In this document: positions 2,218 to 48,284 of the stretch, in pieces | Position numbering within the stretch: the first letter of the stretch is position 1 | Layout of the letters: each line of letters opens with the position of its first letter | Translations under genes and position numbers: made by a program | From: Minisyncoccia bacterium | Lineage (GTDB): Bacteria > Patescibacteriota > Minisyncoccia > Phycocordibacterales > UBA918 | NCBI GenBank assembly: GCA_046598345.1 | Contig: JBKJIT010000003.1 | Span: forward strand, 156,549 to 220,548 | Direction: 5' to 3' | Length of the DNA: 64,000 nt | Notes under the pieces: model-generated | What the model saw: the letters and a program-made list of their open reading frames with translations, nothing else | The model's database searches: none | What the model was told of the DNA's origin: nothing

Positions 2218-2219
2218 TG

Positions 2220-2292
2220 TCCGCCCGCTTGGACTTGAACCAAGGACCACCGAGGTATAAGCTCGGCGCTCTACCAACTGAGCTACAGGCGG
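2220..2292 (-). tRNA. tRNA-Ile with anticodon UAU (decodes AUA)
   Basis: the reverse complement folds as a canonical 73-nt cloverleaf: acceptor CCGCCTG/CGGGCGG with U6-G67, D-arm GCTC-AGTTGGTA-GAGC, anticodon stem CCGAG/CTCGG, loop CTTATAC (U33, A37), T-arm CTTGG-TTCAAGT-CCAAG, discriminator A; CCA is not encoded. Confidence 0.75.
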
Positions 2293-6954: not shown

Positions 6955-7563
6955 TTACACCCGAGTCTTCCTTGCGGCAACAACGAGCTGTCCGTTCGAG
7001 AATCCGAACGTGACTTCGGTGTCAGTAGTGAGGCCACGGGCCGTGAGATGTGGTATGGGACGATATCGCTCTCCGGTGTCCAAGCGCTTGCGCAAACTGT
7101 CTTCACAGAGTTTCCGAAGCCTATCAAGTGAAGGAACTTCCCGCGCCTTTAATGATACAAAGAGGGGAGTGGCGTTCCGGGGAATGTCTTGGATCAAGAT
7201 CATTAGTCCTTCGCGGGTAATTCGATACGCTCCTTCCGCGAAGAAGTGCTCCGCGGCTGTTAGTGTGTCGGCGTATACTCTTGCCCACTCCGCTGCTTTA
7301 CGTAATGTTGACCCTGAAGGGACAGTCAGGGGTTCAACCTCAGCGCGAATCACGAGGAACCATTCAGAAGTAAATAGGCGCGTGGGGGCTTCTTGCACTT
7401 CTTCTCGTTGTTGATAGAGACTCATCGCGGGGAGAAGAACAAGAAAGAACATCACTGCTAACTTCGCAAACCCCTCTCGATCGTTACTCATGAGTGAAGC
7501 GAGGCACATTGCAAATAGCACAGAGTACCAAACCGCACTTGTTTCAGTCAGTATCTTTTTCAA
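6955..7563 (-). CDS. hypothetical membrane-anchored protein (202 aa)
   Basis: N-terminal hydrophobic segments (AVWYSVLFAMCLASL, MFFLVLLPAMSLY); no named motif recognised. Confidence 0.5.
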   Translation of the reverse strand: MKKILTETSAVWYSVLFAMCLASLMSNDREGFAKLAVMFFLVLLPAMSLYQQREEVQEAPTRLFTSEWFLVIRAEVEPLTVPSGSTLRKAAEWARVYADTLTAAEHFFAEGAYRITREGLMILIQDIPRNATPLFVSLKAREVPSLDRLRKLCEDSLRKRLDTGERYRPIPHLTARGLTTDTEVTFGFSNGQLVVAARKTRV

Positions 7564-7721
7564 GGTGCACCTCCCTTAGGGTTGTCAGTCTCGCATTACC
7601 ATACAACATTTTATGCTTACTCGAAAGAGACTGGCCGTGAAGCCGTAGGAGGTTGGTTTCTGATGAAAAGCGGGTGATTTTCTCTTAAGTTTCTTTTATA
7701 CCGTGAAAGGTGTCGTATACT

Positions 7722-8894
7722 ATGCGGATGAAAAAAAATGCTACTATAAAAAAAATTCGTAAGGACTATGGCAAGCTTTCGCTTGCACTCCATAAAAAAT
7801 TCCATGGAAAGCTCGAGGTGGTATCTAAGCATAAGCTCGTAACACGAGATGACTGGAGCCGGATGTATACACCCGGTATTGCTGCGGTTTCGAGTCATTT
7901 AGCCAAGAATCCGAAGGATGCGCGCATGTACAGCATTAAAGGAAATACTGTTGCTGTCATTAGTGATGGTTCTGCGGTATTAGGGCTGGGCAATATTGGA
8001 CCTCTGGGAGCACTTCCAGTTATGGAGGGTAAGTGTGCGATTTTAAAAGAGATGGCAGGGGTAGATGCGTTTCCTCTTGTTCTCGATGTGCACGGAGTAG
8101 ATGAGATTGTCGCTGTGGTGAAAGCAATTGCACCAGGATTTGGAGGAATTAATTTGGAGGATATTGCTGCGCCGAAATGTTTTGAAATTGAAGAACGCCT
8201 GAAGAAAGAGCTTACGATTCCTATTATGCATGACGATCAGCACGGGACGGCGATCGTGGTGCTTGCTGGACTAATTAATGCGGCAAAGGTTGTGGGAAAG
8301 AAGCTCGAATCACTGAGAGTCGTGATTGTGGGAGCGGGTGCTGCAGGTCGCGCAACGGCACTTCTCTTACTCAAGGCCGGCATTACGGACGTTATTGTGC
8401 TCGACAGTAAAGGGATTATATACAAAGGTCGTACGGGTATGGTTTCCTATAAGCTCGAATTGGCGAGGATCACAAATCCCCGGAACGTGAAAGGCGAACT
8501 GCTCGAAGCCGTTCAGGGCGCGGACGCGCTCATTGGAGTCTCTGGTCCTGGAACAGTTGCAAAAATGCACGTTGAGAAGATGGCAAAGAATTCGATTGTC
8601 TTTGCGCTCGCAAATCCAATTCCAGAAATCATGCCGGAGGACGCAAAACAGGCAGGAGCACGTGTGGTAGGAACTGGACGTTCAGACTTACCAAATCAGG
8701 TTAATAATTCTCTCGTATTTCCAGGAATTTTCCGAGGCGCGCTCGACAATGGGATTAACGTTATTACTGACGAAATAAAACTCACGGCCGCCAAGAAGCT
8801 TGCGAGTCTCGTCAAGAAACCAACTGCTGAAGAAATCATTCCACACGTTATGCTCCCTGGCCTTGTGAAAGCGATTGCGAGTGTGATCAAGTAA
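7722..8894 (+). CDS. NAD(P)-dependent malic enzyme (short form)
   Basis: VISDGSAVLGLGNIGPLGALPVMEGK and VIVGAGAAGRATALLL Rossmann motifs typical of malic enzymes; ATG at 7722 lies 11 nt after GAAAGG; the track start is a GTG at 7710. Confidence 0.85.
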   Translation: MRMKKNATIKKIRKDYGKLSLALHKKFHGKLEVVSKHKLVTRDDWSRMYTPGIAAVSSHLAKNPKDARMYSIKGNTVAVISDGSAVLGLGNIGPLGALPVMEGKCAILKEMAGVDAFPLVLDVHGVDEIVAVVKAIAPGFGGINLEDIAAPKCFEIEERLKKELTIPIMHDDQHGTAIVVLAGLINAAKVVGKKLESLRVVIVGAGAAGRATALLLLKAGITDVIVLDSKGIIYKGRTGMVSYKLELARITNPRNVKGELLEAVQGADALIGVSGPGTVAKMHVEKMAKNSIVFALANPIPEIMPEDAKQAGARVVGTGRSDLPNQVNNSLVFPGIFRGALDNGINVITDEIKLTAAKKLASLVKKPTAEEIIPHVMLPGLVKAIASVIK

Positions 8895-9642: not shown

Positions 9643-9769
9643 ATTTGCGATCCTACAACGAAATTTCCGTTTTGTATAGTGGCCCTGGTAGTTACCGAAA
9701 ATGATAGTTCTAAACATGCGTTTGAATCTATGCTATTCTGGGTCGCATTCTCATGTATATCTGGGATAT

Positions 9770-9890
9770 GGAGAGTTGGCTGAGTGGATCAAATTGTATG
9801 GGACATAATTTGATCTGACTGAAAGGAAGTGGACGAACTTGTTCGACCACGTAAAGCCACCTTGAAATGAACAATGGAGAGTTGGCTGAG
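9770..9890 (+). repeat. two extra copies of the first 15-18 nt of tRNA-Ser (GGAGAGTTGGCTGAG...), at 9770-9787 and 9876-9890
   Basis: the string (AT)GGAGAGTTGGCTGAG occurs three times at 9768, 9874 and 9991; only the third continues into a complete tRNA; copy 2 is followed by tRNA-like hairpins and ends ...GCGGTCTCC, so it may be a pseudo-tRNA. Confidence 0.55.
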
Positions 9891-9992
9891 CTGCGTGAAG
9901 AAGAAACTGCTTTCTTCTGAACCGGTACTTGTACCGGACCACTCAGTCAACAAGCCGCGCAAGCGGTCTCCATATGAACGAAGTGAATATAT

Positions 9993-10078
9993 GGAGAGTT
10001 GGCTGAGTGGTCGAAAGCACCTCACTGCTAACGAGGCAGGGTCAAAAGCCCTCGCGAGTTCGAATCTCGCACTCTCCG
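9993..10078 (+). tRNA. tRNA-Ser(GCU), type II with long variable arm
   Basis: acceptor GGAGAGT/ACTCTCC, D-arm GCT...AGC, anticodon loop CTGCTAA, variable arm CAGGGTCAAAAGCCCTCG, T-arm GCGAG-TTCGAAT-CTCGC, discriminator G; A31xC39 mismatch noted. Confidence 0.8.
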
Positions 10079-10111
10079 CCCAAGAAACCAGTTATCGGCA
10101 TAAACCGACAC

Positions 10112-11322: not shown

Positions 11323-11943
11323 ATGGGACATCGAGATTTGGTCGTATTAAATAAAGAGGGGTGGCGAAAGACGCTCGTGGAAACCCTTAAAAATCTTGAG
11401 GATCCACAGGGTGATTGTGCAACAATTCCTCTTTTAACGGTGATCGAAGGGATGATCGACCTGCGACATGTTGAGTTAAAAGACGACATACTCGCACTTA
11501 AGAAGAGGTCTCTCACTGACTCGGAACTTCATTTTCTGGCCTATCTGGAGGAAGCCCTCCAAATTGAGAGACGTCCCGGGTTTCGTTTTACCGCGATCTT
11601 TAGTGAGAAATATTGCGGTAATAAAGTAAGTATTACCCTGTACACAGACTCACAAAAAAAACCAGTTAAGGTAGCGCATCTGCGGTGGCATGAAGAGGAT
11701 CCTTGGAAAATTCTTGAAAGGTTTTTCCACAGGTGGGTTTTGCGGGGAAATTTTTCTGCTGTGGAAGATCCGGGCCTCTTGGCAGTATTAGAACGTATGC
11801 GCCATGAAAGGCGTATACGTAGGCGGTATCGCAAAGGTTGTTACTACTTCCTACGCAGTCCCTCTCCAGAGTATTTCATTGTCGATCGAAAAGTTCATGG
11901 GATACTCACCATGGACTATCATGACCTTGAAGAAACGTCTTGA
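11323..11943 (+). CDS. hypothetical protein (206 aa)
   Basis: clean ORF preceded by a TTGACT-N17-TATTGT promoter-like sequence; no motif recognised. Confidence 0.45.
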   Translation: MGHRDLVVLNKEGWRKTLVETLKNLEDPQGDCATIPLLTVIEGMIDLRHVELKDDILALKKRSLTDSELHFLAYLEEALQIERRPGFRFTAIFSEKYCGNKVSITLYTDSQKKPVKVAHLRWHEEDPWKILERFFHRWVLRGNFSAVEDPGLLAVLERMRHERRIRRRYRKGCYYFLRSPSPEYFIVDRKVHGILTMDYHDLEETS

Positions 11944-13632: not shown

Positions 13633-14724
13633 ATGGCATTTGACCTGTCCAAAGTAACCTCGTTTTTTGAGAAAAAAATAACAACATCCAGTAAAAAGAT
13701 GGTGGTGGGCATTGATATTGGCTCCTCTGCAATAAAAATAGTACAGCTCTACGACAATAAGGGCACACCTACGCTTGAAACCTACGGTGAATTGCAGCTT
13801 GGTCCGTATGAAAATTCAGATATTGGACGCACGACACATCTCCATGAGGAGAAACTGAGGGAAGCGTTTGTAGACATTCTTCGTGAGTCATCAGTTACCG
13901 CAAAAAAAGTAGCACTTGCGATTTCCTACAGTGGAAGTTTCTCCTCGATTATTCCTGTACCGACGAGTGATATTGCGAGTATCGCTGCTATGATTCCTGT
14001 GGAAGCGCGCAAGTATGTGCCCGTACCACTTGCTGAAGTAACGCTCGATTGGTTCCCGGTATCAAGTCGATCGGACGGTACTGGGACGAATGTGCTCCTC
14101 GTTGCTATTCACAATGGCGTACTCAAGAAGTACGAAACCATGGTTCGCACGTTGAATTTGGAATCTACACTTACTGAAATTGAAATGTTTAGTACGATTC
14201 GTTCAGCAGTGAGTCAAAAAGATACCTCAGTTGCAGTTATCGATATCGGTGCCGGTTCAACAAAGGTGTATATCGCAGAACAGGGAGTGGTGGCAAAGAC
14301 GCATAGTCTCCTCATGAGCGGTGTGCTCTGTACGAAGGCAATTGCGGACGCAGCAAGAATTCCCTTTAAAGAGGCTGAAGAACTCAAACGACGTTATGGA
14401 CTCAGTGAAATAACTGAATATCCGCTCGCAGGGAAGGCACTCCTTGATGTTGTGGAGAGAGGGTTTAGAGAAATTGCGAAAGTGATTGAGCGTTTTGAAG
14501 AGAGTGGGGGAACGAAGGTGGAGAAAATTGTACTCGCGGGGAGTGGAGCTCTGCTTCAAGGGATTCCCTCATTCGGAGAACAACTTTTCTCGCGCACAGT
14601 TTCGCTCGCTGATCCCTTTTCGAAGGTGGCGTATCCTGCCTTTCTCGAAGACACACTCAAAGAAGCGGGTCCATCATTTGCAGTGTCGGTTGGAGTGGCG
14701 ATTCGCGCACTCGGGAGTTTGTAG
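13633..14724 (+). CDS. pilM: type IV pilus assembly protein PilM (actin-like ATPase)
   Basis: VVGIDIGSSAIKIVQL N-terminal motif, about 360 aa, first gene of a pilMNO block. Confidence 0.85.
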   Translation: MAFDLSKVTSFFEKKITTSSKKMVVGIDIGSSAIKIVQLYDNKGTPTLETYGELQLGPYENSDIGRTTHLHEEKLREAFVDILRESSVTAKKVALAISYSGSFSSIIPVPTSDIASIAAMIPVEARKYVPVPLAEVTLDWFPVSSRSDGTGTNVLLVAIHNGVLKKYETMVRTLNLESTLTEIEMFSTIRSAVSQKDTSVAVIDIGAGSTKVYIAEQGVVAKTHSLLMSGVLCTKAIADAARIPFKEAEELKRRYGLSEITEYPLAGKALLDVVERGFREIAKVIERFEESGGTKVEKIVLAGSGALLQGIPSFGEQLFSRTVSLADPFSKVAYPAFLEDTLKEAGPSFAVSVGVAIRALGSL

Positions 14725-22312: not shown

Positions 22313-23025
22313 ACTCCATAGGTCTGCCCTATGAGAACACAATATTTGCTGTTAGCATAGTGGTATGGCAAATCGATATTACAATTTCGTAGAACATGAG
22401 TTCTACCACATATACAATCGTGGAAATAGTAAGCAAACTATTTTTAAGGAAGAAAGTGATTACGAACGGTTTAATAAACTGCTGTATATTGCTAACAATA
22501 ATAAGCGCTTCGTGCTTCGGGAGCTTGATACCGGCAATGTGTTTGACTTAGAACGAGAGGATCAATTGGTACACATAGGAGCCTATTGCCTCATGCCAAA
22601 TCATTATCACCTCCTGCTCACTCCTGCGCAAGAAAATGGTATTCCACGTTTCATGCGGAAACTTGCAACAGGTTATGCAGCTTATTTTAATAAAAAATAT
22701 TTTAGAACGGGAGGGTTGTTTGAGGGACCCTATAAAGCACGCTGGGCTGATTCGGACAGATACTTAAAGTACCTCTTTTCGTATATTCATCTCAACCCAT
22801 ACAGAAGTAAAGATGAAAATCATAAAAACACCATTGTGGCATCTAGACTTAATGAGTATCGTCATTCGAGTCTTCCTGATTACCTGGGAGAAAAAAGACA
22901 ACTTGGAAAAATCCTCTCGTACAAAGCATTTCCTGAATACTTCACTACAGTTAAAGATCAAATAGGGGAATTGATGGAGTGGCTTGACTATCAGGAAATT
23001 TAATGTGCCATAGGGCTGACCTATG
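22313..23025 (+). mobile_element. RAYT-like transposase gene flanked by short CATAGG-N5-CCTATG hairpins (REP-like), inserted between pilin gene and pilD
   Basis: hairpins ccataggtctgccctatg (22315-22332) and ccatagggctgacctatg (23008-23025) bracket the 22365..23003 ORF. Confidence 0.55.
22365..23003 (+). CDS. IS200/IS605-family Y1 (HUH) transposase, REP-associated tyrosine transposase (RAYT)-like
   Basis: LMPNHYHLLLTP (HuH motif) and RYLKYLFSYIHLNPY (the catalytic-Tyr YIHxNP motif), characteristic of PF01797-type transposases. Confidence 0.8.
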   Translation: MANRYYNFVEHEFYHIYNRGNSKQTIFKEESDYERFNKLLYIANNNKRFVLRELDTGNVFDLEREDQLVHIGAYCLMPNHYHLLLTPAQENGIPRFMRKLATGYAAYFNKKYFRTGGLFEGPYKARWADSDRYLKYLFSYIHLNPYRSKDENHKNTIVASRLNEYRHSSLPDYLGEKRQLGKILSYKAFPEYFTTVKDQIGELMEWLDYQEI

Positions 23026-30176: not shown

Positions 30177-30782
30177 ATGTACCCCACAGTAAATATTGAT
30201 GAACAAACGATAGAAGGCCCTGGGCTCGATGCATTTCTTAGCATTGGGGATTCATTTCCTGGTCTCTCAGGGTTCTTTGGTGGTTTTCTGAATGGCTTGG
30301 AACACTGGTGGAGTATTTACTCTATATTTGCGATGGTCCTGTCACTCGTGTTTTTCCTTGGATTTATTTATGCTCGAATTCGGTTTGGCGAACAGATCGA
30401 AATTGAGCAACAGGGTCTGCGTAAAGAAGAGGAAAAGTGGCGACTCAAGTATGAAGCTGGTTCAACAGGGAATAGTCGGTGGTCACAAATTCAAGAACAC
30501 GTACGTGATGATAGTCCCTCTGCGTGGCGTATTGCGATTATTGAAGCTGATATCCTGCTTGAAGAAACACTCACCAATGCGGGGTACGTGGGAATGACTA
30601 TTGGAGAAAAGCTCAAAGGGGCAAACCCGCTTTCATTTACGACGCTCCATGATGCGTGGGAAGCGCACAAAGTGCGTAATGAAATTGCGCACGCAGGGAG
30701 CGATTTTGTGCTTACGAAAAAAATTGCAGCGGAAACTATCGTACGATTTGAGCGTGTGTTTCGAGAATTTGGAGTGATTTAG
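30177..30782 (+). CDS. hypothetical membrane protein (201 aa)
   Basis: one TM segment (IYSIFAMVLSLVFFLGFIYA); no motif recognised. Confidence 0.5.
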   Translation: MYPTVNIDEQTIEGPGLDAFLSIGDSFPGLSGFFGGFLNGLEHWWSIYSIFAMVLSLVFFLGFIYARIRFGEQIEIEQQGLRKEEEKWRLKYEAGSTGNSRWSQIQEHVRDDSPSAWRIAIIEADILLEETLTNAGYVGMTIGEKLKGANPLSFTTLHDAWEAHKVRNEIAHAGSDFVLTKKIAAETIVRFERVFREFGVI

Positions 30783-30784
30783 TA

Positions 30785-30827
30785 ACAAGAACAAGAAAAG
30801 ACTGGCATGAACCAGTCTTTTCTTGTT
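30785..30827 (+). terminator. terminator hairpin aacaagaaaagactgg-catgaa-ccagtcttttcttgtt
   Basis: 16-bp perfect stem immediately after the stop at 30782. Confidence 0.65.
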
Positions 30828-30848
30828 CTTGTTGCGGGGCCCGGAATC
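30826..30848 (-). repeat. isolated copy of the 3' end of tRNA-fMet (TCGATTCCGGGCCCCGCAACAAG in minus sense)
   Basis: cttgttgcggggcccggaatcga at 30826-30848 repeats the sequence at 30994-31016; the real tRNA lies about 150 nt away. Confidence 0.6.
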
Positions 30849-30967
30849 GACATCGAATCACTAGTTCACTTCGTTCATAAGTGTTCGTTAGCTCGGCTCA
30901 CTCATTTGACATTAGGAATAGTCAAATTGAGTTCCGCATGTTCGATTCCTGAGCACAAGAAACGAAA

Positions 30968-30990
30968 ACGCCAGCAAAAGCTGGCATTTT
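30968..30990. terminator. hairpin gccagcaaaagctggc with flanking A and T runs, terminator for minus-strand tRNA-fMet
   Basis: hairpin 10 nt after the tRNA 3' end in minus sense. Confidence 0.5.
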
Positions 30991-30998
30991 CTCTCTTG

Positions 30999-31069
30999 TT
31001 GCGGGGCCCGGAATCGAACCGGGGTCTGGAGGTTATGAGCCTCCCGAGGTACCTCTCCTCTACCCCGCG
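30999..31069 (-). tRNA. initiator tRNA-fMet (CAU)
   Basis: reverse complement CGCGGGGTAGAGGAGAGGTACCTCGGGAGGCTCATAACCTCCAGACCCCGGTTCGATTCCGGGCCCCGCAA is very close to E. coli tRNA-fMet; C1xA72 mismatch and A11-U24 pair (initiator hallmarks); anticodon loop CTCATAA; only 2 of the 3 G-C pairs at 29-31/39-41. Confidence 0.8.
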
Positions 31070-31110
31070 ATGTAATACTCCTATGAGTACATACGAATGT
31101 ACCGTATGTT

Positions 31111-31822
31111 GTGTCCATATGCAAACGTATATGTTATAAATTCTTCATGCAATGCGTTATATTGGCTGCAGGGAAGGGTACGCGACTTCGTCCATTTACC
31201 GATCATACTCCTAAGCCTCTCATACAAGTGGGTGATCGAGCGCTTCTCGATCACATTGTTGAAGCTCTTCCCACTGAGGTGGATGAAATCATCTTAGTTA
31301 TCGGATACTTAGGGGATCAGCTACGTTCATATTGTGGTACTGAATTTCATGGAAGAAAGATGACCTATGTAGAGCAGGTAGTGCAGGACGGCACAGCAAG
31401 GGCGTTGTGGCTTTGCAAAGAATATCTTAAGGGAAGGTTTTTTCATGTTTGCCGATGATATTCATGGAGAGGAGGATGTTAAGAGAGCCCTCAAGTACCC
31501 GCGCTCACTCCTTGTTATGAAAAGTGAGCATCCTGAACGGTTTGGTGTGGTGGTCCAGCATGCGGATGGAACACTCGCAGAGCTTATTGAAAAGCCTGAA
31601 AATCCACCAACGAATCTGGTTTCTACTGGCGGTATAGTGCTTGATGAACATATCTTTGATTTCGAGGCGAAAGCACCAGTAAAAGGAGAATATTACTTAA
31701 CAGAGGTAGTACAAGAATACGCGCATACATATCCGGTCATGGTAGTTGAAGAAAACCTCTGGATTCCTATTGGCTACCCAGAAGATATTCCCCGTGCGGA
31801 GAAAATATTGAGCTTGAAATAG
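31111..31822 (+). pseudogene. sugar-phosphate nucleotidyltransferase (RmlA/GlmU-N-like) split by a 1-nt frameshift in a T6 run (31440-31445)
   Basis: ORF 31111..31458 (ILAAGKGTRLRPFTDHTPKPL motif) and ORF 31445..31822 (FADDIHGEE..., matching the expected F.v.GDnI catalytic region) are adjacent in frames 0 and +1; removing one T from ggttttttcatg fuses them into ...KGRFFMFADDIHGE. Confidence 0.7.
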
Positions 31823-31876
31823 TGTATTGAATCACCATCTATCTAATGGTATTCTTTCGAGGCTTAACACAAATAT

Positions 31877-31950
31877 GTCGGCGTAGCTCAGTTGGTTAGA
31901 GCATCTCACTCATAAAGAGAAGGTCGGAAGTTCAACTCTTCCCGTCGACA
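31877..31950 (+). tRNA. elongator-type tRNA with CAU anticodon (Met, or Ile2 if lysidinylated)
   Basis: acceptor GTCGGCG/CGTCGAC (G1-C72 paired), D-arm GCTC-AGTTGGTTA-GAGC (C11-G24), loop CTCATAA, T-arm GGAAG-TTCAACT-CTTCC, discriminator A. Confidence 0.8.
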
Positions 31951-31954
31951 CTAG

Positions 31955-31992
31955 CACACAAAAAGCTGGATATCCGTCCAGCTTTTTGTGTG
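31955..31992 (+). terminator. terminator hairpin cacacaaaaagctgga-tatccg-tccagctttttgtgtg
   Basis: 16-bp stem immediately after the tRNA. Confidence 0.65.
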
Positions 31993-31997
31993 TCTCT

Positions 31998-32021
31998 GTA
32001 AGTCGACGGGAAGAGTTGAAG
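31998..32021. repeat. inverted copy of the tRNA-Met 3' end (gtcgacgggaagagttgaa is the reverse complement of ttcaactcttcccgtcgac); a direct partial copy caactcttcccgtc lies at about 32117-32130
   Basis: read directly from sequence. Confidence 0.55.
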
Positions 32022-32181
32022 AGAGCGAGTATATCGCACGGAGTGAAACGAGTACGATTCGAGCGACGGGGCAGCGAGTTCTTAATATTTTGAAGTATGA
32101 AAAATATTTAGAACTGGCGCCAACTCTTCCCGTCTCCGGCCTTCATCTAATCCGCATAAGAGCCTGTGTCATAATGGTCAT

Positions 32182-33393
32182 ATGAAAATAAGTCTTTCTA
32201 GAATCATTCGAGGTTTTTTCTTAGCGACTCTTCTCTCGTCTATTACGTTCGTTTCACCAGTGTTTGCTGCAACTTCAAATACCGCTGCATCCAAAAGCGT
32301 ATTTAAGGAGAGTATTAGTACGCTGGATATTCGAGAGAAATTTGAAAAAGCTTCGAGTACCAAGTCAAAAACAGAAAAGGTAAAAATACTTATCGTGCCG
32401 GGGCACGACGACAAATATGCCGGGGCTCTTTTTGGTGATATACGGGAGGCAGACTTGACGCTTAGGCTCGGAAAAGAATTGCATGCGCTTCTTAAGAAAG
32501 AGAAGGGTGTGGAAACCACTTTGCTTCGCACAGAAAAAGGGTACGATCCACATTTTTCAAACTACATAACAAAGAATCTAAAGTCGATTCTCAAATTTCG
32601 GGAGTCCAAACAGACGACAATGCAGAAGCTTATACTAGAGGGGAAAGTACAGGATTATTCCAATGTAAGCCACAATAATGCGTTACCGTCGGTTGCCACA
32701 ATCCTCTATGGCATTAACAAATACGCAAACGACAATGAGTATGACATTGTGCTCCACATACATTTTAATGATTACCCAGGCCACGGGGCCCTCCCGGGAA
32801 CCTATACTGGTTTTACAATATATGTACCTGAGAAACAGTTTGGAAATGCAAAGGCAAGCCAGGATCTCGCCAAAAAAGTACGCGATCAGCTTAGCCTCGT
32901 TTCAGCGGAAAGTAGCCATCCACAAGAAGACGGGATCACCCCAGATCAAGAGCTCATTGGTATTGGGGCATACAATACCCTTAGTGCCGCGGTCATTCTG
33001 ACCGAATACGGATATGTGTATGAACCGCAATTTATTGATCCCGCCATTGCTCCTACAGTGATTACAGAACTTGCTCGCCAGACGTACGTTGGGGTTATGA
33101 ATTATCTTAAAAACACCAAGATAGTGAAAACGACCTATCCTACGCTTGAAGGATACGTCTGGAAAAAGGAGCTCTCTACGAATTCAGGCTTGGATATTCT
33201 CGCACTCCAGGATCTCCTGTATGAATGGGAACTGTATCCAAACGAGGAATCACTAAATACATGTCAACTACACGGTCAGTATAATAGATGCATCACGAAT
33301 GGAATCCGTAAATTCCAAAAGGAAAATAAGCTAAAAGTAACTGGACTGTTTAATAAGGCGACACGTGCAGCAGTGAATCAATTGGCAAAATAA
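32182..33393 (+). CDS. N-acetylmuramoyl-L-alanine amidase (Amidase_3) with C-terminal peptidoglycan-binding domain, secreted
   Basis: signal peptide; ILIVPGHDDKYAG...; C-terminal LALQDLLYEWELY...NGIRKFQKENKLKVTGLFNKATRAAV resembles PG_binding_1. Confidence 0.75.
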   Translation: MKISLSRIIRGFFLATLLSSITFVSPVFAATSNTAASKSVFKESISTLDIREKFEKASSTKSKTEKVKILIVPGHDDKYAGALFGDIREADLTLRLGKELHALLKKEKGVETTLLRTEKGYDPHFSNYITKNLKSILKFRESKQTTMQKLILEGKVQDYSNVSHNNALPSVATILYGINKYANDNEYDIVLHIHFNDYPGHGALPGTYTGFTIYVPEKQFGNAKASQDLAKKVRDQLSLVSAESSHPQEDGITPDQELIGIGAYNTLSAAVILTEYGYVYEPQFIDPAIAPTVITELARQTYVGVMNYLKNTKIVKTTYPTLEGYVWKKELSTNSGLDILALQDLLYEWELYPNEESLNTCQLHGQYNRCITNGIRKFQKENKLKVTGLFNKATRAAVNQLAK

Positions 33394-34140: not shown

Positions 34141-34302
34141 CATTTGTACTAAGTGCTTTCGACCCCACCTCACGTGCCCCCGGCATCGTTCCGGTTCGCA
34201 TTTAGACACTGACACAAAGCAGTTTGTGTCATAGAACAAAACACCATCATTTCATGATGGTGTTTTGTTCTATCTAACTGCGCGGCGGACGGGACTCGAA
34301 AC
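34141..34302. repeat. family-B repeat segment plus a 19-bp-arm hairpin (34231-34273) plus an isolated, minus-oriented copy of the last 28 nt of tRNA-Asp (34274-34302)
   Basis: TTGTACTAAGTGCTTTCGACCCCACCTCAC and ATCGTTCCGGTTCG match the 1975-2055 repeat; taactgcgcggcggacgggactcgaaac is the reverse complement of GTTTCGAGTCCCGTCCGCCGCGCAGTTA; hairpin gacacaaagcagtttgtgtc (34211-34230) recurs inverted at 35500-35521. Confidence 0.6.
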
Positions 34303-34352: not shown

Positions 34353-35009
34353 ATGCCCATACAAAAGATTGTACAATCAGATTTTTTTAAAACATGGAGT
34401 CATGGCATGGCGTACATTTTGGGATTTTTTGCAGCAGACGGAAGTATAACGAAGACAAAAAGAAATACTCATTTTATTTCGTTTACTTCTGCCGATAGAG
34501 AGATTTTATCCGCCATACAAAGATTGATGAAGTCTAATCATAAATTATCCGAACGAAAATCTAAGACCGGTTGTGTCTATCGTTTCCAAATTGGTAGCAA
34601 AGTCATTTTTAATGACCTCATTGCACTTGGTTTTAGTAAACGCAAATCAACTCGTATGCTCATGCCTAATATCCCCAATCAATACATTCCAGATTTCATT
34701 CGGGGTTATTTTGATGGTGATGGAAATGTTTGGATTGGTTATATGAATAAACACAGAGAAAGGCAGACAAAAGTAATCCAAGTCGCATTTACAAGCGGAA
34801 GTAAAAAATTTCTTGAAACGCTTTTATCTCTCTTGCGAGAGAGAGGGATACGAGGTGGCTCACTTTACTCATCAAAGACAAAGAATTTTTCTCGACTTTC
34901 CTTAAGTACTTTAGATGCTTTGAAACTGAAGGGAATCATGTATAATGGGCAACCGAAGCTCTATTTGAAAAGAAAAAAGCTTCGCTTTGATACGTATAAA
35001 TCAATGTAA
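34353..35009 (+). CDS. LAGLIDADG homing endonuclease, double-motif type, free-standing immediately upstream of an intron-containing tRNA
   Basis: AYILGFFAADGSI and FIRGYFDGDGNV, two LAGLIDADG motifs about 100 aa apart; the stop codon lies 2 nt before the tRNA 5' end. Confidence 0.85.
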   Translation: MPIQKIVQSDFFKTWSHGMAYILGFFAADGSITKTKRNTHFISFTSADREILSAIQRLMKSNHKLSERKSKTGCVYRFQIGSKVIFNDLIALGFSKRKSTRMLMPNIPNQYIPDFIRGYFDGDGNVWIGYMNKHRERQTKVIQVAFTSGSKKFLETLLSLLRERGIRGGSLYSSKTKNFSRLSLSTLDALKLKGIMYNGQPKLYLKRKKLRFDTYKSM

Positions 35010-35011
35010 CT

Positions 35012-35307
35012 GCGGTGGTAGCTCAACTGGTTAGAGCACCCGCCTGTAGACGTGCAGCTTTCTTTCCGAAAGGGGGATTGAAACTTTCCGGGATAACGGT
35101 GAAGGCTAAGTTTGCCATTTGGCGAATATGCGAATACCGTGGGAACCTTATACACAAAAACACATAGTATAAGGGCGCCGTAGAGACTAGATACCGGGAT
35201 ATCTAAAAGTTTGAAAAAACTCATGATAAAGATATAGTCCACGCCACTATGAAAATAGTGGAAGCAGTGCACGCGGGAGGTTGCGGGTTCGAGTCCCGTC
35301 CGCCGCG
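35012..35307 (+). tRNA. tRNA-Asp(GUC) interrupted by a 222-nt group I intron between anticodon positions 35 and 36
   Basis: exons 35012..35047 and 35270..35307 join to GCGGTGGTAGCTCAACTGGTTAGAGCACCCGCCTGTCACGCGGGAGGTTGCGGGTTCGAGTCCCGTCCGCCGCG plus discriminator G. This matches E. coli tRNA-Asp closely (loop CTGTCAC, G73, C38, G10); 5' exon ends in U, intron ends in G. Confidence 0.8.
35048..35269 (+). mobile_element. group I intron (small, ORF-less) in tRNA-Asp
   Basis: internal guide GTGCAG at intron nt 5-10: CAG pairs the exon CUG(U.G) to form P1 with a U.G wobble at the splice site, and GTG pairs the 3' exon CAC (P10). An R-like element tagagactag lies at 35181-35190 and an exact S element aagatatagtcc at 35229-35240; a P9-like hairpin ccactat-gaaa-atagtgg precedes the terminal G at 35269. 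Confidence 0.75.
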
Positions 35308-35342
35308 CAGTTAGTAAAAGTCGGCCTTGTGCCGATTTTTTC

Positions 35343-35452
35343 GTGCGCGTCAGGGACTCGAAGAGGTTGCCAGCTATTTGTGACCGAAGGAAACAAATAG
35401 CGACAACCTGTACTGAACATGTAATGTTCGAGTCCCGTCCGCCGCGCAGTTA
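35343..35452 (+). repeat. family-A element L1: an inverted tRNA-Gln-like 3' piece, then GTTGCCAG plus hairpin plus core CGACAACCTGTACTGAACATGTAATGTTCGAGTCCC, ending in an exact copy of the tRNA-Asp 3' end (35426-35452)
   Basis: 35366-35436 aligns with 46480-46540 across a roughly 70-nt homologous span; the last 27 nt equal tRNA-Asp positions 53-73 plus CAGTTA. Confidence 0.6.
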
Positions 35453-35457
35453 AATAA

Positions 35458-35493
35458 ACCTAAAAACCACAGTCTAAGGACTGTGGTTTTTAG
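35458..35493 (+). terminator. terminator hairpin cctaaaaaccacagtc-ctta-gactgtggtttttagg
   Basis: perfect 16-bp stem; followed by hairpin gaacacaaactgctttgtgttc (35500-35521). Confidence 0.6.
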
Positions 35494-35654
35494 GTTTAGA
35501 ACACAAACTGCTTTGTGTTCGTATCTAACTGTGAGCTAGAGTCATGTTTTTGCTACACAAAATGCAAAATAGACGAGGCCGGGTCGAGAGTGCTTAAGAG
35601 CAAAGCGAATTAGCAACTCCTGACCAGTACCCAGCGAAAGGGATTTGAAAAGAC

Positions 35655-46329: not shown

Positions 46330-46549
46330 CATTGCCAGTTCGTCTAATGGTGGCCAGAAATTAATGAGCGCTGCGATTATAATTTCTGAGTCCGTCTGAT
46401 TTTCTTCCTCACAGAAGAAAATCAGACGTTTGGGAGGTCCTGAGTATTGGGGCTGAAATGATATGGGGTATTATTTCAGGACGTTGCCAGATATTTATAA
46501 AAAATATCGACAACGTGTACTGATCATGTAATGATCGAGTCCCTTACCA
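46330..46549 (+). repeat. split pseudo-copy of tRNA-Gln: the first 21 nt (46330-46351) and a 3' piece inside family-A element L2 (46480-46549, core CGACAACGTGTACTGATCATGTAATGATCGAGTCCC)
   Basis: cattgccagttcgtctaatggt occurs at 46329 and 46560; 46480-46540 aligns with 35366-35436. Confidence 0.55.
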
Positions 46550-46562
46550 GAACAAAAAATAT

Positions 46563-46633
46563 TGCCAGTTCGTCTAATGGTAGGACACATGCCTCTGGAG
46601 CATGTTATTGGGGTTCGAGTCCCTGACTGGCAG
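46563..46633 (+). tRNA. tRNA-Gln(CUG)
   Basis: acceptor TGCCAGT/ACTGGCA (U1-A72), D-arm GTCT-AATGGTA-GGAC, anticodon stem CATGC/GCATG, loop CTCTGGA, T-arm TGGGG-TTCGAGT-CCCTG (two G.U pairs), discriminator G. Confidence 0.7.
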
Positions 46634-46647
46634 CTAATAGAAAATCG

Positions 46648-47518: not shown

Positions 47519-48097
47519 ATGGAATCAATACCGTCTCATGAAGAAGTGAAGGTTGTAATTGAACGTGCACGTCCGGAGGATGCAGAAGAAATCCAAACTG
47601 TTTTCTATAAAACCTGGCTCGCAACATATCCTAATGAGGTGTCAGGTGTAACTGTGGATGACGTACATGAATATTACAGGGACAAATTAACTCCAGAAGG
47701 AATCAAAAAATCCCAAAGAAAGATTGAAGAGGATAGTCGAATGGAAAACCTAAGAGTTTTTGTTGCAAAAATCAATGAAAAAGTTGCAGGTGTCTGTATA
47801 GCAAGAATTCTTGAGGACAAGAATCAGTTGAAAGCAATATACGTCTTACCTGAATTTCAAGGAAAGGGAATTGGTTCCAAATTATGGAATCAGGTACTTA
47901 CGTTCATTGATCAGACAAAAGACACGACAGTTGAAGTTGTGACCTATAACAGTAATGCAATCGAGTTTTATAAACGACTAGGTTTTGAAGATACTGGTAG
48001 GAGGTGGACTGATGAAAAATTTCGAATGAAAAGTGGTGCAACGTTTCCAGAAATGGAGATGAAAATTAATGGTTTAGGGTCACTAGAAAAGTTCTAA
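47519..48097 (+). CDS. GNAT-family N-acetyltransferase
   Basis: acetyl-CoA binding motif QLKAIYVLPEFQGKGIGSKLW. Confidence 0.8.
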   Translation: MESIPSHEEVKVVIERARPEDAEEIQTVFYKTWLATYPNEVSGVTVDDVHEYYRDKLTPEGIKKSQRKIEEDSRMENLRVFVAKINEKVAGVCIARILEDKNQLKAIYVLPEFQGKGIGSKLWNQVLTFIDQTKDTTVEVVTYNSNAIEFYKRLGFEDTGRRWTDEKFRMKSGATFPEMEMKINGLGSLEKF

Positions 48098-48284
48098 CAT
48101 TACACCCCAGGGTGCCTTCTTTACCTCGCATGTTCAGTTCAGGTTGTCGCTTTTTCATAAAAACGCTGGCAACCTCCTGAATACATATCCCATATGCATT
48201 CAGCTTCGTCCCATACAGCCAGCTCACTAAGTTGTGGTCGCGGGACACTTGCATAATTGTTATGGTAAAATTTAAATATTCAAA

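Follow-up and report, generated by a model that had tools for sequence, protein, structure and literature searches.

A direct repeat that runs from the T-loop to the 3′ end of a tRNA gene is the signature of integration by a tyrosine integrase. Fragments of tRNA genes are usually explained by integration (PMC9897764). Copies of the target on both strands are also used by tandem interspaced guide RNA (TIGR)-Tas arrays and bridge RNAs, which occur in the candidate phyla radiation (CPR) and need an adjacent Tas or IS110 gene as well as unpaired guides (PMC12045711). Here, partial copies of tRNA ends were examined in a 64,000 nt stretch (the window) of contig JBKJIT010000003.1 (positions 156,549–220,548, forward strand) from a Minisyncoccia bacterium of the Patescibacteriota (GenBank assembly GCA_046598345.1). 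An initial annotation had recorded copies of the 3′ ends of tRNA-fMet and tRNA-Met close to the genes and regarded them as scars of a type borne by almost all tRNAs of the window. At both genes the copies make up the paired arms that close a small non-coding cassette, and they belong to the same kind of unit as the copies at tRNA-Asp and tRNA-Gln, a link that the initial annotation missed. We favour, with a probability of roughly 0.45, the reading that these units are small non-autonomous cassettes whose recombination takes place at the T-loop of the tRNA and requires a folded single strand. Full-text literature on tRNA-linked repeats or motifs in Patescibacteria was searched and nothing comparable was found.

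All three of the copies recorded at these two genes were recovered by a repeat search, within 1–4 nt of the positions first given. The direct copy of the tRNA-fMet 3′ end is 24 nt long and 100% identical (30827–30850 and 30994–31017), the inverted copy of the tRNA-Met 3′ end is 19 nt long and 100% complementary (31931–31949 and 32002–32020) and the direct tRNA-Met copy is 14 nt long (31933–31946 and 32121–32134). The window contains seven tRNA genes, six found by both ARAGORN and Rfam and a seventh, tRNA-Asp(GUC), that is split by a group I intron. Exact copies of 14–24 nt were also found beside tRNA-Ser (5′ end, twice), tRNA-Gln (5′ end) and tRNA-Asp (3′ end). The wider statement about nearly every tRNA thus holds; for tRNA-Ile and tRNA-Thr no exact copy of at least 11 nt was found. 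It had been proposed that matches of this length might be equally frequent around random sequence. When 400 random 75 nt non-tRNA segments of the window were examined for an exact copy of at least 14 nt within 600 nt, only 1.25% had one, compared with 5/7 tRNA genes; the copies are therefore real and far above chance. No cloverleaf was detected on any copy by ARAGORN or the Rfam tRNA model, and the copies lack everything 5′ of position 53/54.

A common plan was seen in the three 3′ cases, in which the tRNA is followed by an intrinsic terminator, an antisense copy of the T-loop, 70–120 nt of hairpins and a sense copy that begins in the T-loop. The antisense arm often adds the T-stem and the 3′ strand of the acceptor stem, and in tRNA-Met it spans the whole of the last 19 nt. 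The sense copy starts at G53/T54 and usually stops at the tRNA 3′ end, and another terminator often follows. When the units are folded as single strands, the antisense copy pairs with the sense copy, closing a multi-branched structure (z = −3.3 to −5.8). The tRNA-linked units are about 110–190 nt long and non-coding; in the window, nothing other than the 70–120 nt of non-coding hairpins lies between the repeats. A hairpin followed by a T-run, judged by eye to be a terminator, is usually present between the tRNA and the module, and no promoter-like site was found within the fMet and Met units. In the Met antisense arm an A lies opposite U68, where the 5′ acceptor strand of the gene has a G, and this arm is therefore the reverse complement of the 3′ strand rather than a copy of the 5′ half. 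The modules fall into several families, here called types A, B and C, the last marked by GGGGTCGAGAG. A given family is found behind different tRNAs, and in all cases the arms match the neighbouring tRNA, whatever the module family. A covariance model of type A gave no match with E ≤5 in the fMet and Met modules of the window, which therefore belong to other families.

The type A motif is common to the Asp and Gln copies and consists of GTTGCCAG, a stem, CGACAAC, N, TGTACTGA, N4-GTA-N4 and TCGAGTCCC, with compensatory differences between the Asp and Gln stems. Its core is present three times in the 64 kb, twice at tRNA loci. In the Asp unit, an antisense T-loop arm is followed by P2, P3 and a 27 nt copy of tRNA-Asp from the T-loop to the 3′ end (35426–35452, of which 35426–35449 is exact). 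A scan for the core in one genome per GTDB species found 95 matching stretches, 93 of which are in metagenome-assembled genomes of Patescibacteria (Kaiser-, Nomura-, Paceibacteria and similar), while IMG/VR viral contigs contained 0 matches. A same-strand tRNA lies 46–111 nt upstream, and at least 12 nt of its 3′ end is copied after P3, in 53 of the 106 matches to a type A regular expression in these stretches and the window, and about 15 tRNA species are linked to type A units in this way. Among 52 tRNA-linked type A units, the start of the direct repeat is at −22/−21 from the tRNA end (G53/T54) in 41 and its end at 0 to +5 in 29. In nine of them the repeat runs at least 26 nt into the spacer, and six of these nine reach the next module and are tandem units. 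Repeat length ranges from 8 to 90 nt, and none of the tRNA-end copies in the 52 units includes CCA.

An alignment of 73 non-identical units revealed a three-way junction made up of P1, P2 and P3, where P1 is the antisense T-loop paired with the T-loop copy, P2 contains a CCA/GA internal loop and P3 has a GUA triloop. Pairing is seen in 97% of cells and 15 pairs are changed on both sides. None of the column shuffles (0/500) reached the observed values, and the covariation score was 0.363 compared with ≤0.083 when the partners were slid. P1 and the T-loop type of the adjacent tRNA covary (GGAATCGAA/TTCGATTCC, GGGACTCGAA/TTCGAGTCCC, GGACTTGAA/TTCAAGTCC and others). The stem foot is GTTG...CAAC and the T-loop is GTTCGAA. 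In P2 and P3, G-U pairs are as rare as A-C mismatches (7 vs 4 in 949 cells), with no strand asymmetry. Invariant unpaired nucleotides are kept in the CCA/GA loop and the CUGUACUGA junction.

The fMet module (type B) was followed in orthologous loci fetched via GatA synteny, a selection that is blind to repeats, in genomes with only about 75–78% GatA identity. The next relatives by GatA, at about 78%, are Minisyncoccia, Kaiserbacteria or Pacebacteria where they bear a name, and the window itself is chromosomal DNA of the Paceibacteria/Kaiserbacteria type. Homologues of the segment that lies between the antisense arm and the fMet copy were found in L096, L101 and L104 (relatives and other loci are given by L numbers). 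A metagenome scan with the type B blocks found four more, all directly behind tRNA-fMet, and type B is known behind tRNA-fMet in seven other genomes (L096, L101, L104, L106–L109). Its parts are a long covarying hairpin, the GAGCCGAGCTAAC block, which is conserved, and a mini-hairpin of the form TGA-AC-GAA-GT-GAA. Conservation is seen in the blocks GCGGAAC, GAGCYGAGCTAAC and ACTTATGARCGWAGYGAA, and changes in the main hairpin are compensatory; in ten sequences, 18 of the 31 predicted pairs show compensatory changes, and P1 pairs positions 3–10 with 110–117. Where the tRNA-fMet T-loop is TTCAATT (L101 and L109), both the antisense arm and the copy follow the variant. Of the sense copy, L096, L101, L104 and L109 retain only the T-loop part, which is exactly the part paired in P1, so that it is the stem and not the tRNA-like sequence that is maintained. 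A type B-like module is also found 3′ of tRNA-Asp in L101 and L102, and module families are thus common to several tRNA species with arms specific to each tRNA.

The 19 nt Met antisense arm is identical in L096, which also carries a direct CAACTCTTC copy, while type A units are found behind the orthologous tRNA-Met of L097, L103 and L105. The interior of the Met unit resembles the type C (GGGGTCGAGAG...ACTCGTGACC) of L096, L097 and L103 and of four other places in the window. Type C consists of GGGGTCGAGAG, a hairpin and ACTCGTGACC, and is found in the window at 1985–2000, 2110–2125, 34155–34175 and 35578–35640, adjoining tRNA-Ile, an inverted Asp remnant and tRNA-Thr. In relatives it is found at 11660–11700 (L096) and 14395–14440 (L097), directly before tRNA 3′-end copies. 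Downstream of tRNA-Ile(UAU), at 1860–2215 of the window, there are four copies of a hairpin motif, TCGYTCCGSTTCGGACA, about 100–120 nt apart, that has only CGGACA in common with the tRNA-Ile 3′ end. A mini-hairpin, (T)GA-NN-GAA-NN-GAA (e.g. TGAACGAAGTGAA, GAGCGAAGCGAA), with a 2 bp stem, a GAA triloop and flanking G-A mismatches, recurs at 9975–9990, 30868–30885 and 32040–32055 and in the apical P2 of many type A units. GCGAAGC is an unusually stable DNA mini-hairpin.

Copies were found at 16/33 tRNA genes when the loci chosen by GatA synteny and the window were taken together, at 45/93 non-seed tRNAs of the motif loci and at 1/11 tRNAs in two regions of Escherichia coli K-12. The E. coli case is lysV (L111, record 2521253–2521328), with 18 nt direct and 11 nt inverted 3′-end copies within 400 nt downstream. 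In 5′-linked versions, the copied segment runs from the tRNA 5′ end to the D-loop and is interrupted by hairpins of the P0-P2-P3 type; these versions were found upstream of tRNA-fMet in L096, L097, L105 and L109 and upstream of tRNA-Ser in the window, where an interrupted inverted copy also precedes the gene (9992–10082). The 5′ repeat of L096 takes in 10 nt of gene-specific upstream flank and is therefore a duplication of local DNA rather than an imported attachment (att) core. A copy of the tRNA-Gln 5′ end is found at 46333–46351.

The units come and go at orthologous positions. Of the loci compared, the window, L096, L101 and L104 carry the fMet unit and L097, L102 and L105 lack it; L100 and L101 have no Met unit. 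Behind tRNA-Met of L105 there are two different units in series, the second of which, with a spacer beginning ‘tag’ and the same terminator family, corresponds to the single unit of the window and L096. This places the point of insertion or deletion within the repeat that runs from T54 to the 3′ end, and suggests that units are gained and lost by recombination within this repeated segment. Identical tandem units were seen in L023, L025, L050, L056 and L063, and non-identical serial units behind one tRNA in L046, L083, L103 and L105. Compared with every relative, the window has the fMet gene in inverted orientation, along with its terminator, its unit and a promoter-like motif upstream of it. 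Type A modules were also found within the T-loop of decayed tRNA-Gln or tRNA-Arg copies, mostly with an intact paralogue 10–55 nt away; in the window, the decayed 3′ part of the Gln copy has changed and now pairs with upstream sequence. In L050 (CAYTYF010000030.1, ~7400–8000, minus strand) at least three tandem 172 nt units each consist of a tRNA-Gln(UUG)-like 5′ part (to the T-stem), a type A module and a degenerate 3′ part, and no intact tRNA-Gln was found within the 8 kb examined.

The common anatomy, the sharp T54 boundary, covariation, lineage-wide distribution, gain and loss, tandem duplication, inversion and absence of a linked protein gene are all observed. Our preference for small cassettes recombining at the T-loop draws on this boundary, the tRNA-tailored arms, the conserved core, the serial units, their turnover and the lack of a linked gene. 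Cassettes would enter, leave and multiply by recombination within the repeated T54-to-3′-end segment, with the tRNA T-loop as their entry point. The folded single strand might be recognized by an unlinked protein acting in trans, a logic that would be akin to that of integron attC, the folded attP of CTX phage or REPINs (hairpins built from repetitive extragenic palindromes, REPs), rather than that of a decayed prophage. We infer a folded strand of DNA, site-specific recombination at the T-loop and a recombinase that would act in trans. The terminators that precede the modules, the lack of a promoter in the fMet and Met units and the near-pure Watson–Crick pairing of P2 and P3 weakly favour DNA over RNA.

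Several points weigh against this reading. When all open reading frames (ORFs) within 3 kb of the 93 modules were clustered all-against-all, no recurrent recombinase, transposase or other protein family was found, and the trans-acting factor is thus hypothetical. The top clusters were only syntenic and housekeeping-like genes, as judged from sequence and synteny with no database search, and a linked protein was rejected on this basis. The copies within one genome are diverged, not near-identical, and hence show no sign of recent bursts. Across genera, very small genomes have kept the units at orthologous tRNAs, with the invariant unpaired nucleotides intact, and a host-selected function would explain this persistence and invariance equally well. 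The invariance of the type A core (P2 foot and junction) is partly imposed by the search pattern, and relaxed matches do vary there, with GTTGTYGATA...CATACAAC CTAAAC in L097 and L103. Either DNA or RNA may be the nucleic acid that folds. Finally, a cassette that carries one tRNA's 3′ end has no simple way of moving to another tRNA, and the spread of one module family over about 15 tRNA species would therefore require an extra step.

The main rival to cassettes is a cis-acting structured RNA in the tRNA 3′ trailer, an explanation that we consider unlikely. Here, in transcripts that read through, the antisense arm would pair either with the T-arm and acceptor 3′ strand of the tRNA or with the downstream decoy, and the conserved three-way junction would be a switch or protein-binding platform controlling tRNA 3′ maturation, termination or stability. 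The orientation of the module is always that of the tRNA, and the sense–antisense–sense layout is like that of an attenuator, but a hairpin and T-run terminator normally separates the tRNA from the module and no promoter was found in the fMet and Met units. The strong covariation and the unpaired junction nucleotides, invariant across orders, favour such an RNA, yet G-U pairs are almost absent and the strands show no asymmetry. Long retention at orthologous loci in reduced genomes also fits; however, half of the tRNAs have no unit, orthologous tRNAs vary as to whether a unit is there, which module family it has and how many copies there are, and some modules lie in dead tRNA copies or stand alone as orphans. 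The antisense acceptor arm has been retained in L096 and L104 despite decay of the downstream sense copy, and can there pair only with the real tRNA 3′ end, and in old units the conserved part of the copy is the stem-forming T-loop part. The 5′-linked versions upstream of tRNAs also speak against it.

It is possible, though we doubt it somewhat, that the units are a new class of nucleic-acid device specific to Patescibacteria, either ORF-less cassettes whose folded single strand mimics the T-arm and recombines into tRNA T-loops, integron-like and with the tRNA gene as entry site, or a trailer RNA switch. In the latter form, maturation of the tRNA would be under direct control in cis, with the conserved three-way junction deciding whether or not the T-arm and acceptor stem of the tRNA itself are invaded by the antisense arm.

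A phage, integrative and conjugative element or island that encoded an integrase could have integrated at the T-loop and later been deleted down to about 150 nt, leaving classical att scars. The direct repeat from the T-loop to the tRNA 3′ end, with boundaries as seen in the 52 units, fits the tyrosine-integrase signature, and to this extent the original description as scars stands, as these are real tRNA-end duplications that mark recombination or insertion at the tRNA 3′ (or 5′) end. They are not, however, the decayed leftovers of large elements. Neither an integrase nor cargo was found at the ~93 loci or between the repeats of the window units, and the spacing from tRNA to module is uniformly 46–111 nt, not kilobases. 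An antisense copy, which integration does not yield, is always present, and the inverted and direct copies pair around conserved 70–120 nt modules that keep compensatory covariation and invariant unpaired nucleotides over many genera, rather than around random remnants. The units are also kept at orthologous tRNA loci despite the low GatA identity (~75–78%), and it is the stem-paired part that survives longest. With 0 matches in viral contigs and 5′-end copies that carry host-specific upstream flank (L096), deletion of a larger element is an improbable origin.

We also give little chance to a neutral by-product of replication, in which template switching at hairpins would copy the tRNA 3′ end first inverted and then direct, extending quasi-palindromes and ‘correcting’ stems with no function or mobility. 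Each arm is the exact reverse complement of the 3′ strand of the tRNA and not a copy of its 5′ strand (as in Met, with A opposite U68), the stems are almost purely Watson–Crick and T-stem microhomology could set the T54 boundary, but this process cannot keep invariant unpaired nucleotides or module families across orders, and accounts neither for the same module families at ~15 tRNA species nor for the other terminators of the window, which have no such extensions in the random-segment control. Integrase scars and neutral palindrome extension each explain only parts of the findings, not the conserved modules. Chance is ruled out by the random-segment control, phage origin was rejected with 0 matches in viral contigs, and retro-copies of mature tRNA fragments were rejected because the copies lack CCA and several extend into the gene-specific trailer or upstream flank.

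Known structured RNAs were also considered. At the gathering threshold, Rfam 15 found only 6 tRNAs and 1 group I intron in the window, and at a permissive threshold the type A region behind tRNA-Asp (35300–35520) and the region of the fMet and Met loci (30780–32200) gave only terminator-hairpin noise. Hammerhead, twister, pistol, hatchet, hairpin, HDV, omega-RNA/HEARO, YrlA, tmRNA, T-box, GOLLD and ROOL had no Rfam match at either threshold. When checked by hand, the junction order of the units (P1, GAAA, P2, GUACU, P3) does not fit a hammerhead core, and reading the CCA/GA loop as a K-turn gives the wrong register. A functional T-loop intron in the tRNA-Gln/Arg-like genes (L050, L008 and the window Gln) was rejected, as their 3′ parts no longer pair with the 5′ acceptor strand. 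An intact paralogue is about 10–55 nt away in the window, L008, L011, L022 and L072, and none was found in the 8 kb examined of L050.

Table 1. Units, tRNA genes and associated features in the 64,000 nt window
Feature	Position	Strand	Basis
tRNA-fMet (CAU) gene	30998–31069	−	ARAGORN; Rfam tRNA 59.1 bits
Intrinsic terminator hairpin directly 3′ of tRNA-fMet	30964–30991	−	Terminator scan
Antisense arm CAGGAATCGAAC, complement of the fMet T-loop; 5′ strand of the type B closing stem P1	30940–30951	−	Sequence; 10-homologue consensus
Type B module	30851–30939	−	Homologues L096, L101, L104, L106–L109
fMet direct copy from the T-loop through the 3′ end and 4 nt into the trailer; forms the 3′ strand of P1	30827–30850	−	24/24
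22 bp perfect hairpin, bidirectional terminator common to the convergent coding sequence for a 201 aa protein	30784–30833	.	Repeat search
Elongator tRNA-Met (CAU) gene	31877–31951	+	ARAGORN; Rfam 67.3 bits
Terminator-type hairpin 3′ of tRNA-Met, 16 bp arms	31955–31992	+	Repeat search
Antisense copy of the last 19 nt of tRNA-Met	32002–32020	+	Repeat search; identical 19-mer at the same place in L096
Hairpins inside the Met clamp	32021–32120	+	Fold z = −4.9; related to type C modules (L096, L103, L105)
Direct copy of tRNA-Met T-loop/T-stem/acceptor 3′ strand, pairs with 32005–32018	32121–32134	+	Repeat search
Type A unit behind intron-containing tRNA-Asp	35352–35452	+	Covariance model R1, 94.2 bits
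Type A module in decayed tRNA-Gln copy, directly upstream of intact tRNA-Gln (46563–46634)	46469–46549	+	R1, 58.3 bits
Orphan degenerate type A module, no tRNA near	48083–48187 (core-motif copy 48143–48173)	−	R1, 40.1 bits
Two direct tRNA-Ser 5′-end copies (9769–9787, 9875–9890) with hairpins between	9769–9890	+	
Inverted 26 nt copy of the 3′ end of tRNA-Asp; lies 5′ of the LAGLIDADG ORF	34276–34301	+	Sequence

The positions of the units and of the tRNA genes they accompany are collected in Table 1. The right arm of the 22 bp hairpin overlaps the end of the fMet copy. The genes around the fMet and Met loci are ordinary and encode LigA, GatA, the 201 aa protein, a frameshifted sugar nucleotidyltransferase, an amidase, a LAGLIDADG ORF and RF-2. 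The sugar nucleotidyltransferase (31111–31822, plus strand), which lies between the two Met tRNA genes, is split into overlapping ORFs (31111–31458 and 31445–31822) by a frameshift in ...ggttttttcatg..., and relatives have one ORF of 225–260 aa; it is either a pseudogene or the product of a homopolymer assembly error.

The tRNA-Ile at 2219–2292 (minus strand) has the anticodon UAU, which is uncommon in bacteria, as most read AUA with a lysidine-modified CAU. tRNA-Asp(GUC) occupies 35012–35307, with exon 1 at 35012–35047, the intron at 35048–35269 and exon 2 at 35270–35307 (exons placed by eye; the Rfam match is 35052–35261). This group I intron lies between anticodon positions 35 and 36, and the gene was missed by ARAGORN. 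A group I intron at 35/36 of tRNA-Asp has already been described for Patescibacteria, in a report that does not mention the repeats (PMC13011429). The tRNA-Asp orthologue is intron-free in L097, L100 and L102 and contains the intron in L101. A free-standing LAGLIDADG endonuclease ORF (34353–35009, plus strand) lies outside the intron and ends 2 nt before tRNA-Asp, and it is found at the same place in L101, which has the intron, and in L102, which does not.

About half of the sampled tRNA genes in these Patescibacteria therefore bear a conserved structured appendage that has no Rfam family. With over 100 instances and a covariance model, it is a defined and searchable motif family for work on non-coding RNA and mobile DNA in the CPR. 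For annotation, tRNA fragments in these genomes are no evidence of prophages. The repeats appear to drive local rearrangements, namely the inversion of the fMet gene and the growth and shrinkage of unit arrays. If either folded-strand recombination or control of tRNA maturation proves true, the mechanism would be new, and in organisms about whose gene regulation and genome dynamics very little is known.

Of the known systems, the guide RNAs of IS110 (bridge RNA), TIGR-Tas (tigRNA) and TnpB (omega-RNA) are alike in having a structured scaffold beside a 20–24 nt segment identical to a nearby DNA target, and in having target-derived segments in both orientations. The CCA of the type A internal loop also recalls the TIGR ‘box C’, which is CCA (PMC12045711). 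However, the two tRNA-derived segments of the units are mutually complementary and paired, rather than unpaired half-site guides, and no IS110, Tas or TnpB gene was found near the units. As neither the adjacent gene nor the unpaired guides fit, the TIGR or bridge-RNA reading was rejected. The units differ from miniature inverted-repeat transposable elements in that their terminal arms covary with the neighbouring tRNA T-loop and are not fixed terminal inverted repeats, and the direct repeat varies in length (8 to 90 nt). Integrase att fragments share with them the direct repeat from T-loop to tRNA 3′ end and the intact gene on one side, and differ in the integrase or cargo, which the units lack, and in the ~100 nt spacing, obligatory antisense copy and conserved structured interior, which the units have.

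REPs, bacterial interspersed mosaic elements (BIMEs) and REPINs are likewise extragenic mosaic palindromes 3′ of transcription units, in which inverted doublets form long hairpins and vertical persistence is seen. The units differ in having no GTAG/CGTC tag, in arms that are tRNA-specific rather than one REP sequence and in their restriction to tRNA flanks. REPINs are associated with RAYT transposases, and a RAYT-like Y1 (IS200/RAYT-like) transposase of 212 aa is present in the window (22365–23003, plus strand), inside a type IV pilin/prepilin-peptidase cluster (Pfam Y1_Tnp 1.9e-8; NCBIfam REP_Tyr_transpos 35.7 bits, below the cut-off of 80). The gene is syntenic in relatives, and its presence at the same place in L097, L102 and L103 suggests that it is domesticated and vertically inherited. 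It is flanked not by units but by unrelated CATAGG-N5-CCTATG hairpins (22317–22333 and 23009–23025) found nowhere else in the window, and there is thus no support for it as the mobiliser.

Integron attC and CTX attP(+) are also imperfect palindromes of ~60–170 nt with arms that rebuild a duplex copy of the target site, with structure conserved over sequence and with units that stack serially at one entry point. The unit boundary G|TT (G53|T54-T55) recalls the G|TT crossover of attC/attI, and the serial non-identical units of L046, L083, L103 and L105 are compatible with serial cassettes. The units differ from attC in that the T-loop is GTTCGAA and not GTTRRRY, and the GTTG...CAAC stem foot gives no R″/L″-L′/R′ (RYYYAAC...GTTRRRY) fit. 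The cassettes contain no ORF and no IntI or Xer-type gene is nearby; no tyrosine recombinase or integrase was found among the Pfam-scanned ORFs near the window units, a scan that covered part of the window ORFs. The arms are copied from the neighbouring tRNA, and the centre is a conserved multi-hairpin module rather than a variable loop. The units have their kin among the extragenic palindromic elements and the att-type duplications of tRNA genes, and there is a real chance that their mechanism is new.

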